Virus record (IMG/VR): IMGVR_UViG_2667527875_000001
Coordinates: 1-64,000 of that record
Origin: a virus
Reading direction: 5' to 3' (one strand)
DNA: 64,000 nucleotides
Positions 10,427 to 10,825 of the stretch are shown here, piece after piece. Every line of letters begins with the position of its first letter. Positions within the stretch are counted from its first letter, which is position 1. The translations under genes and the position numbers were made by a program. Below the pieces are notes generated by a model. The model saw only the letters and a list, made by a program, of their open reading frames with translations. It was not told where the DNA came from and made no database searches.

Positions 10427-10455
10427 TTGATTTGTAAGCGCTAACGTTCTATAAT
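10427..10455 (+). promoter_or_regulatory. sigma-70-type promoter of the repeat array
   Basis: TTGATT (10427-10432), 17 nt, TATAAT (10450-10455). Confidence 0.6.
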
Positions 10456-10480
10456 AAGAGCATGGATGAATTGTAATGAG

Positions 10481-10708
10481 GTTCGCGGGACCTCTAAATC
10501 CCGCGTGGATTGAAATTTTTCCTCGCTAGTGCGATTAACATTTTATTATCACCCGTATAAACGGGTGCGGATTGAAGCATCATCCATTATTGTTATCGAC
10601 CTAAGCTATATTATCACCGAGGGCAATACCTCGGTGCGGATTGAAATAACACCAAGGATGCGGCGCGCATTTATTTTCGCCGGGACAGAACCCGACGCGG
10701 ATTGAAAT
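10481..10708 (+). CRISPR. cas-less mini-array of four type I-C-like CRISPR repeat units (or RNA anti-CRISPR repeat mimic)
   Basis: Units end at 10516, 10577, 10647 and 10708. Each is a GC hairpin followed by G(T/C)GGATTGAA(A)T. Unit 1 is GTTCGCGGGACCTCTAAATCCCGCGTGGATTGAAAT. Intervening segments are about 29-37 nt. Confidence 0.6.
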
Positions 10709-10741
10709 TATTACTTTTACAGAATTATTGGAAAGATACAT

Positions 10742-10779
10742 AAAACCCCTAGGCTGACGTTGGTTGACCTAGGGGTTTT
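10742..10779 (+). terminator. rho-independent (bidirectional) terminator
   Basis: aaaacccctagg ... cctaggggtttt, a 12-bp stem flanked by an A-run and a T-run. Confidence 0.7.
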
Positions 10780-10825
10780 ATGAGCCTTATAATTAAATCA
10801 ACCCCACGGAAAGGGGGTGATTATC

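Follow-up and report, generated by a model that had tools for sequence, protein, structure and literature searches.

What does a block of hairpin repeats without adjoining cas genes do on the genome of a phage, and whose proteins would it use? The question is raised by a locus in a stretch of viral DNA of 64,000 nucleotides (nt), positions 1 to 64,000 of the IMG/VR record IMGVR_UViG_2667527875_000001. This whole stretch is referred to here as the window. As read from the sequence, the locus forms one small gene for a non-coding RNA, running from promoter to terminator, on an SPbeta-like Limosilactobacillus phage. Its units resemble the repeats of type I-C CRISPR (clusters of regularly interspaced short palindromic repeats) systems, and it very probably is a functional array of the type I-C kind, giving RNAs like CRISPR RNA (crRNA) and depending on the Cas proteins of the host. 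As to its role, an anti-CRISPR of the Cracr type, decoy competition included, has about an even chance of being correct.

The block lies on the + strand, between the stop of an open reading frame (ORF) of 292 amino acids (aa; 9540-10418, +) and a small ORF that starts at about 10827. Its parts are as follows.

10427-10455, + strand: sigma-70-type promoter TTGATT-17-TATAAT, from a consensus scan (10/12 positions); its hexamers are invariant in 8/8 versions of the locus
10456-10480, + strand: short leader up to Unit 1, with a putative transcription start at about 10463
10481-10516, + strand: Unit 1, made of GTT, stem CGCGGGA, loop CCTCTAAA, stem TCCCGCG and the 11-nt handle TGGATTGAAAT; stem of 7 base pairs (bp)
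10517-10547, + strand: spacer-like segment S1, 31 nt
10548-10578, + strand: Unit 2, made of AT, stem CACCCG, loop TATAAA (10556-10561), stem CGGGTG and handle CGGATTGAAGC; 6-bp stem
10579-10612, + strand: spacer-like segment S2, 34 nt, the canonical length of a type I-C spacer
10613-10647, + strand: Unit 3, made of AT, stem CACCGAGG, loop GCAATA (10623-10628), stem CCTCGGTG and handle CGGATTGAAAT; 8-bp stem
10648-10675, + strand: spacer-like segment S3, 28 nt, G+C-rich
10676-10708, + strand: Unit 4, made of TT, stem CGCCGGG, loop ACAGAA, stem CCCGACG and handle CGGATTGAAAT; 7 stem positions, one of them a C.A mismatch
10709-10741, + strand: spacer-like segment S4, 33 nt, continuing into the terminator
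10742-10779, + strand: intrinsic terminator, made of AAAACCCCTAGG, a 14-nt loop (10754-10767) and CCTAGGGGTTTT; hairpin and U-run present in the fold

Scanning of both strands of the window gave four copies of the motif GYGGATTGAAR (10505, 10567, 10636 and 10697), every one of them on the + strand. By chance, 0.32 copies would be expected, and none of 100 shuffled sequences held four or more. In the form G(T/C)GGATTGAA(A/G), the four copies are confined to 10505-10707 (+); each stands directly 3' of a G+C-rich hairpin, and the promoter and the terminator bracket the set. In every unit, the 3' arm of the hairpin ends 11 nt ahead of the unit end and is followed by (T/C)GGATTGAA(AT/GC). A degenerate 5' part, (T)TATT-ATCACC or TTCGCC, is common to Units 2 to 4 as well and is the counterpart of the GTCGC with which type I-C repeats begin. 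When the predicted transcript (10463-10785) was folded, the minimum free energy structure and the centroid structure each contained all four repeat hairpins as well as the terminator, with a z-score of -4.44 relative to shuffled sequences.

An earlier annotation of this DNA, made by a model from the letters and their ORFs (the first-pass annotation), had described four type I-C-like units with their own promoter and terminator, and the motif count, promoter score and fold z-score bear this out. Some details had to be corrected. The four units are there, but Unit 2 ends at 10578 and not at 10577, and the periods are 62/69/61 nt instead of 61/70/61. The differing stems do pair as described, but they are longer than had been listed (7, 6 and 8 bp in Units 1 to 3, and 7 positions with one mismatch in Unit 4).

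The likeness to type I-C repeats was assessed with genuine repeats, gathered from arrays in IMG/VR contigs and bacterial genomes. A covariance model, R1, was built from 39 real type I-C repeats of 32-33 nt, none of them from this phage, and run on both strands of the whole window with filters off. Its top four matches were exactly the four units, aligned over model positions 1-32: Unit 3 with 20.4 bits (E = 0.0026), Unit 2 with 17.8, Unit 1 with 17.3 (10482-10516) and Unit 4 with 15.8 (10679-10708). Their E-values were 0.003-0.055 each, and the next match in the window reached 10.7 bits (E = 1.6). The same model gave 21 matches over the eight array-bearing versions of the locus presented below, and 0 in three relatives that lack the array. 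The type I-C layout proposed in the first-pass annotation is thus picked out independently by a model of real repeats. The CRISPR-DR families of Rfam all stayed below threshold, the best being CRISPR-DR9 on Unit 2 (23.9 bits, against a gathering score of 45).

The features of type I-C repeats present in the units are the 11-nt register from stem to unit end, the handle (U/C)GGAUUGAAA(C/U) and a GUCGC-like start. Both variants of the handle adjoin real type I-C operons. On the Bacillus mycoides plasmid NZ_CP128138.1, the annotated genes cas3-cas5c-cas8c-cas7c-cas4-cas1c-cas2 are followed by the repeat GTCGCACCTCTTGTAGGTGCGTGGATTGAAAT, which bears the UGG handle and whose end is identical to the last 14 nt of Unit 1, GCGTGGATTGAAAT. 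On contig L179, genes for Cas3, Cas5d, Csd1, Cas7, Cas4 and Cas1 (confirmed with Pfam) adjoin the repeat GCATCGCCCGCCAGCAATGGCGGGCGCGGATTGAAAC, which bears the CGG handle, and so the CGG form of Units 2 to 4 is also a natural type I-C variant. The handle GGATTGAAAT is near-universal in type I-C repeats; for this reason, sharing it with the repeat of a given host is a test of low power.

Compared with the canonical array of B. mycoides NZ_CP128138.1, the phage array has the same kind of GTCGC-like start, hairpin and 11-nt handle, and a similar period (about 61-69 nt, versus 65-67). It differs in having no adjoining cas genes, in the four different stems and loops of its four units, in its loop length (6-8 nt, versus 3-5) and in its irregular segments of 31, 34, 28 and 33 nt, where the canonical array has unique spacers of about 33-37 nt. 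It also has its own strong promoter, 25 nt before the first unit, and an intrinsic terminator in place of a last repeat. Judged from these alignments, the likeness to type I-C repeats appears real, yet the units have diverged, mainly by longer loops.

Natural variants of the locus were recovered from independent samples by exact-protein look-ups of the neighbouring genes. Seven more array-bearing contigs were obtained, namely L297, L303, L304, L306 (= L307), L308, L322 and L327, which makes eight versions with the window. Three relatives, L323, L324 and L326, are without the locus. The relatives stem from gut assemblies of chickens, pigs and pigeons (ERR13264941, SRR26926534, ERR13265118, ERZ13616449, ERZ27280710). 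L322 and L327 have a different leader but retain Unit 1, which shows the leader to be free of constraint. Between the window and L303, whose upstream gene is 1.1% diverged, changes affect 1 of 56 stem positions, 1 of 44 handle positions and 0 of 38 terminator positions, as well as 11 of 26 loop positions and 13 of 126 spacer positions. The only stem change, a C to T in Unit 3, retains a G.U pair.

The loop changes are of a particular kind. The Unit 2 loop TATAAA reads TTTATA in relatives, an exact inversion; the Unit 3 loop GCAATA reads TATTAC in L303, an inversion with one substitution; and the terminator loop CTGACGTTGGTTGA reads TCAACCAACGTCAG in L322, again an exact inversion. Inverted repeats mediate these small flips, which make the loops look more diverged than they are. 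Hypervariability was considered for the 42% loop divergence and rejected, the divergence being largely due to whole-loop inversions. Since loops are inverted or mutated while the stems are unchanged, loop sequence and orientation are free and the stems are held.

In L322 and L327, the Unit 1 stem is CGCAGGG/CCCTGCG instead of the CGCGGGA/TCCCGCG of the window, with a compensatory change from G-C to A-U. The Unit 4 stem is kept in L303, L304, L306 and L322, its loop having 2 substitutions in L303. When 13 distinct units are compared, pairing is 92% over the four outer stem pairs, of which two show covariation: pair 2 is A-U in 8 units and G-C in 5, and pair 4 is C-G in 10 and G-C in 3. Complete arrays have three to four units, with three guide segments in L304 and L322. 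By contrast, L091, a viral array of 15 units, has eroded hairpins. Taken together, the variants argue strongly for a functional RNA constrained in its structure and against a decaying remnant. The purifying selection on stems and handles seen in the eight versions also agrees with the statement of the first-pass annotation that structure and handle are conserved, and not the sequence of the stems. The surroundings of the array are mosaic, with a background divergence of 1% upstream and 21-34% downstream. In L303 the 55-aa ORF that follows the array is 34% diverged while the neighbouring array is nearly identical, which places a mosaic boundary directly after the array.

The spacer-like segments behave as a small pool of alleles that recombines, unlike a record of successive acquisitions. 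S1 is identical in the window and L306 and has a form with 2 substitutions in L303 and L304; L297, L322 and L327 carry S1x, and L308 carries a different first segment. A comparison of S1 with S1x shows 2 differences in the first 12 nt and 8-9 in the 11 nt that follow; their last 9 nt are identical. S2 is confined to the window and L303, where it has 3 substitutions, and is missing from L304, L306 and L322, and Sx is present only in L297. S3, S3' (L303, L322) and S3'' (L306) are about 72-85% alike, with lengths of 25-28 nt, and L306 carries S3 and S3'' in tandem together with an extra unit, U5. Every complete array has S4 or S4b; these are invariant over their first 9 nt and differ at positions 10-21. 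Several independent samples share the same spacer alleles. In the alignments, the end of the S1 and S4 alleles that would be proximal to the protospacer adjacent motif (PAM) appears better conserved than the middle.

S3 further contains an inner hairpin, ATGCG-GCG-CGCAT (10658-10675), followed by TTATTTT. The S3' and S3'' alleles retain a 4-bp hairpin and the T-run, the closing pair being A-U, G.U or G-C across the three alleles. This hairpin could be an internal attenuator or the sign of a palindromic target.

The first-pass annotation had also proposed that the segments be searched for targets beside a TTC PAM. Such a search found no target in phage records, PLSDB or IMG/VR, a weak negative, as the collections searched hold no relative of this phage. 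With blastn, the whole array gave only matches at E >= 3 among 50,697 phage records and the PLSDB plasmids. Scans of IMG/VR with S1 to S4, leaving every sixth base free, gave either no match or chance matches in high-GC contigs without a TTC PAM, and S2, the one segment scanned against the JGI metagenomes, gave no match there. A self-target search of the window and the contigs of its relatives returned only a 10-nt seed match of S3 in tnpB (6808, PAM TCA), which is at chance level.

Searches for the phage itself were equally empty in these collections. Neither the locus nor 25 kb of the window matched the phage records in megablast, tblastn with the 292-aa protein found nothing in the same records, and a search of IMG/VR for homologues of this protein found none. 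Scans for the Unit 1 pattern gave 0 matches in IMG/VR and the JGI metagenomes. An exact scan of IMG/VR for GGTGCGGATTGAAAT was discarded, as its 55 matches were all single chance ones without hairpins.

The 292-aa protein encoded upstream of the array has the same sequence as KRL91613.1 / WP_056953960.1, encoded on a 124-kb contig of Limosilactobacillus ingluviei DSM 15946, and the window is assigned to this strain. The relatives include contigs of 112-122 kb with YonD- and YonG-like genes, on account of which the carrier is called an SPbeta-like temperate phage, of about 120 kb, of the gut bacterium L. ingluviei. In a PADLOC search with the 46 window ORFs of at least 120 aa, no Cas3, Cas5, Cas7 or Cas8 was present among the best 25 of 105 matched families. 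The sole Cas-like match among the families listed is an IS605 TnpB, which hits Cas12f models. The claim of the first-pass annotation that the 64 kb hold no cas genes consequently stands for type I, within those best 25 families, and is qualified by the TnpB.

The array could act as follows. Cas5c (Cas5d) is reported, in work attributed to Nam et al. 2012 and Garside et al. 2012, to recognize the repeat hairpin together with the 3' single-stranded sequence, and its cut at the 3' base of the stem is said to leave an 11-nt 5' handle. The units keep these features on the strand that is transcribed and with the correct register, from which one would most simply predict that a host type I-C system cuts the transcript to four crRNA-like RNAs, to be loaded into Cascade. 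The type I-C Cas5c of the host would cut each unit at the 3' base of its hairpin. Each product would consist of an 11-nt handle, a guide-like segment of 28-34 nt and a 3' hairpin, and the fourth would end in the terminator hairpin and not in a repeat hairpin. The crRNA-like RNAs may then occupy Cas5c, Cas7 and Cas8c and compete with the crRNAs of the host for Cascade. Pairing limited to the seed would probably also steer Cascade to the promoters of host cas or guard-toxin genes, without cleavage.

The first-pass annotation had proposed two functions, a mini-array against competitors and an RNA anti-CRISPR, and had left out a category that is closer than either: the viral Cracr arrays. In the preprint by Liu et al. 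(bioRxiv 10.1101/2024.10.29.618823), these are viral crRNA-like RNAs that repress Cas or CreT; they compete for Cas proteins and steer them by partial pairing onto the promoters of cas or guard-toxin genes. The preprint describes them as often multiplexed, which is said to target variants of one system, and mentions nine two-spacer type I-C arrays. Regulatory mini-arrays of viruses had been predicted earlier by Shmakov et al. (PMC10120712), with degenerate repeats that keep the spacer-proximal handle and the hairpin, and with guides whose identity lies in the seed and whose divergence lies downstream (PMC10120712). In these accounts, Cracr features are degenerate pseudo-repeats, several spacers per transcript and seed-limited pairing with cas or toxin promoters (10.1101/2024.10.29.618823; PMC10120712).

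The phage array is similarly Cas-less and phage-carried. Its pseudo-repeats are degenerate with handle and hairpin retained, it has several different guides in one transcription unit, diverged copies of one guide lie side by side (S3 and S3'' in L306), and some guides are below canonical spacer length. Differing repeats conserved only in structure, irregular or short guides, diverged guides in tandem and alleles biased towards the seed all suggest a Cracr. It differs in the number of guide segments, which is 4 (3 in L304 and L322) and is 2 in the reported type I-C Cracr arrays, and in that no co-encoded anti-CRISPR (Acr) was recognized beside it. The preprint lists Bacillota and, in the parts consulted, names no Lactobacillaceae example (10.1101/2024.10.29.618823). 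By analogy, Cracr arrays appear to be the closest known match.

Several observations weigh against a Cracr acting through a host type I-C system. The defining feature of Cracr is either a spacer similar to that of a host CreR/CreA, or 9 or more PAM-proximal bp formed with the promoter of cas or creT next to a PAM; the likeness of the phage array to Cracr is one of anatomy and alleles. The seed-conservation signal comes from very few allele pairs, and the S2 and S3 alleles change within the seed. Because the background around the locus is mosaic, selection on the spacers is not cleanly quantifiable. An expectation that spacer substitutions favour every sixth (flipped-out) base was rejected, with 3 of 14 at such positions, though both S1 changes fit. 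S2 and S4 are at canonical spacer length and equally fit ordinary interference guides. No known acr or anti-CRISPR-associated (aca) gene was recognized beside the array when the neighbouring ORFs were compared with Pfam, PHROGs and PDB.

Other points concern the host. Type I-C systems have been reported in the genus Limosilactobacillus (PMC9455696; PMC13369735), so that a cognate host system is plausible on the basis of these genus-level reports, which are not for strain DSM 15946 itself. A tblastn search of PLSDB with Cas1c showed no Lactobacillaceae type I-C locus among the matches listed, a search for Cas7c homologues gave only Bacillaceae among the best 120, and a repeat scan of a bacterial genome collection showed arrays from other phyla among the matches listed. 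In the literature, no type I-C repeat sequences for Limosilactobacillus were found.

Other roles were weighed against the Cracr-type anti-CRISPR. The array might be a mini-CRISPR array for conflict between mobile elements, providing guides with which host Cascade and Cas3 attack rival phages or plasmids (superinfection exclusion), with the divergent stems mainly protecting the array from recombination. This is possible but rather unlikely. The anatomy is the same as that of a functional crRNA array, S2 (34 nt) and S4 (33 nt) have the canonical length of type I-C spacers, and the carrier is a temperate SPbeta-like phage with cargo genes. The spacer content also varies among near-identical phages, S2 being present or absent, Sx being found in L297 and another first spacer in L308. 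Viral mini-arrays directed against related viruses are the classical interpretation, and those of Faure et al. 2019 and Medvedeva et al. 2019, cited in two later papers (PMC10120712, PMC10651486), likewise have few repeats and spacers on a viral genome, no cas genes and a reliance on host Cas proteins. They typically have, however, near-identical repeats matched to the host and spacers that match viruses, whereas the repeats differ here and no viral target was found. The lack of a protospacer in phage records, PLSDB, IMG/VR, the window and the contigs of its relatives counts only weakly, these collections being without phage relatives. Also against this role, the spacers are few diverged alleles of the same sequences and not unrelated acquisitions, and S1 (31 nt) and S3 (25-28 nt) are below canonical length. 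Four differing repeats are, in addition, unusual for host-matched interference arrays, and many IMG/VR mini-arrays have identical repeats. Guides against competitors are a viable reading because of the canonical length of S2 and S4 and because the reference data do not cover Limosilactobacillus phages.

The same units could also be pure repeat decoys in tandem, a multi-copy Racr, trapping Cas5c and Cas7 in aberrant complexes, with the segments as mere linkers; the different stems might then mimic different type I-C repeat variants. Racr are solitary-repeat RNA anti-CRISPRs, among which RacrIC1, a single type I-C repeat mimic, was validated experimentally (Camara-Wilpert et al. 2023, PMC10651486). 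The phage array shares with them a phage-encoded mimic of a CRISPR repeat, with type I-C among the validated cases, a predicted and conserved promoter of its own and the lack of type I cas genes, and by analogy it would be expected to bind the crRNA-processing and backbone proteins of the host. Stems and handles are indeed the most conserved parts, with spacers diverging about five times faster (10% versus 2%), the unit number changes between 3 and 4 among complete arrays, and one array combines two kinds of handle and loop, such as occur in different real type I-C systems. Against this, Racr are solitary, and the SRUFinder program discards candidates with another repeat-like sequence within 100 bp (PMC10651486), while the phage units are 61-69 nt apart. 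Adjacent processed units necessarily release a guide-bearing crRNA-like molecule, which makes a linker-only function hard to sustain. Between alleles, S1 and S4 vary less in their first 9-12 nt than in their middles, and identical spacer alleles occur in several independent samples. Decoys without guides are accordingly improbable. Racr and Cracr often lie within 1 kb of acr genes; none was identified beside the array, where unmatched small proteins could still be Acrs. Least probable is that the block is not a working CRISPR-related RNA at all, but a decaying captured array or a set of DNA repeats such as iterons or centromere sites for partition or replication. A partition-protein homologue and replication genes are present in the window, eroded type I-C-like arrays such as L091 exist on viral contigs, and the loop inversions mean that the hairpins also act as DNA inverted repeats. 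The hairpins are nonetheless intact, unlike those of L091, and are kept by wobble and compensatory changes over eight versions; a strong conserved promoter and a terminator stand precisely at the two sides of the repeat block and on its strand; and a protein-binding iteron leaves the full-length type I-C match, with its 11-nt register, unexplained.

The Cracr-type anti-CRISPR could be taken one step further, to a broad-spectrum RNA anti-CRISPR with multiple guides, whose differing hairpins would be accepted by several type I-C variants of Limosilactobacillus and whose four guides, conserved in the seed, would turn host Cascade to the silencing of cas operons or other defence or guard genes. 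The array would then combine two natural repeat flavours, one with a UGG handle and a long loop and one with a CGG handle, and the diversity of its hairpins would resist recombinational collapse. This extension is speculative and unlikely to be correct in full. If true, it would make the locus the largest type I-C crRNA-like counter-defence array described, and the first in Lactobacillaceae, as far as the accessible literature shows.

How new is such a locus? The first-pass annotation had called it unlike a normal array with near-identical repeats. As a statement of novelty this was overstated, since viral mini-arrays with heterogeneous repeats have been published and are common in IMG/VR. Type I-C-type mini-arrays are frequent among IMG/VR contigs. 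Cas-less ones with 2-3 units and differing stems were observed in L064, L073, L077, L083, L098, L125, L167 and L174 (IMG/VR) and in L218 (a Murimonas intestini genome), so arrays with heterogeneous repeats are recurrent in public viral data. Because Cas-less repeat mimics and viral mini-arrays with degenerate repeats are already described, and common in IMG/VR, the phage array is a fresh example of a described viral trick and no new category. What is distinctive is the combination of four guide segments, repeats that all differ, two handle flavours, an SPbeta-like Limosilactobacillus carrier and variants with loop inversions.

A different arrangement was noted on L111 (= L112), an IMG/VR contig of 125 kb. 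Its array (7420-8569) has 16 repeats of 36 nt, GTCGCATCCTCTAACAAAGGATGCGTGGATTGAAAC, with a loop resembling that of Unit 1. Directly upstream (1175-7201) are ORFs of 786, 223, 610 and 336 aa. Their sizes fit cas3, cas5c, cas8c and cas7c, and they may form a virus-borne type I-C effector module without adaptation genes.

The site of the array is a variable cargo island. In the array-less relatives L323, L324 and L326, at the site homologous to window 9540-11700, the 292-aa gene is cut to 56-61 aa. The cargo that replaces the array is a PemK-family toxin gene in L324 and a resolvase gene in L326; in L323, a weak sequestin-like Pfam match lies beside a DUF6275 gene. A metagenome relative, L298, has a homologue of the 292-aa protein that is 41% identical, and no array; about 2 kb downstream of the gene for this homologue, at 3342-5312, an ORF longer than 788 aa matches CRISPR_Cse1 of Pfam.

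Of the ORFs beside the array, those of 292 and 55 aa had no match in Pfam or PHROGs. In L297 (1786-2100), L304 (5158-5472) and L308 (3024-3338), a 104-aa ORF lies between the 293-aa gene and the array promoter; neither it nor the 292-aa ORF had a match among the solved structures of PDB. The DNA of the 104-aa ORF is about 70% identical (blastn) to a stretch elsewhere in the window (48970-49263, - strand). The unmatched small proteins near the array could be Acrs, and the 104-aa ORF could be considered an Acr candidate.

Downstream, a second promoter, TTGACC-18-TATAAT (11/12 positions, 10764-10793), overlaps the 3' arm of the array terminator, and it would drive the lysine-rich 55-aa ORF (10827-10993). 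This ORF is followed by about 730 nt (10994-11720) without a convincing ORF, with about 79% identity among relatives in partly conserved stretches and with a diverged second copy of the array terminator sequence at about 11088-11125. Rfam gave no match above threshold in 10994-11720, and its His_leader and miRNA matches around the terminators were discarded as spurious.

Elsewhere, the window carries genes for a RecD-like helicase, a DnaB-like helicase, HNH endonucleases, a thymidine kinase, a C5-methylase and the partition-protein homologue. Two further features are listed here.

6522-7682, + strand: IS605-family TnpB, with HTH_OrfB_IS605, OrfB_IS605 and Cas12f1-like TNB domains (domain scans)
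26725-29359, - strand: cluster of seven tRNA genes, Ile-tat, Trp, Leu-tag, Gly-tcc, Lys, Asn and Arg-tct

Copies on Limosilactobacillus fermentum plasmids share 72-75% DNA identity with this TnpB, and the insertion is missing from relatives L322-L324. Its omega RNA would be expected just downstream, in the non-coding stretch that reaches to about 7870.

The value of the locus lies in its being a well-resolved example with variation at the level of the population. The eight variants form a natural mutational series for dissecting what Cas5c and Cascade need, with fixed stems and handles, inverted loops and exchanged guides. The array also offers a compact natural design for the multiplexed expression of type I-C guides with non-identical repeats. 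Should it act in the proposed way, the RNA-based hijacking of CRISPR systems would extend to the large temperate phages of gut and food lactobacilli, bacteria whose type I-C systems are under development as tools for endogenous editing.

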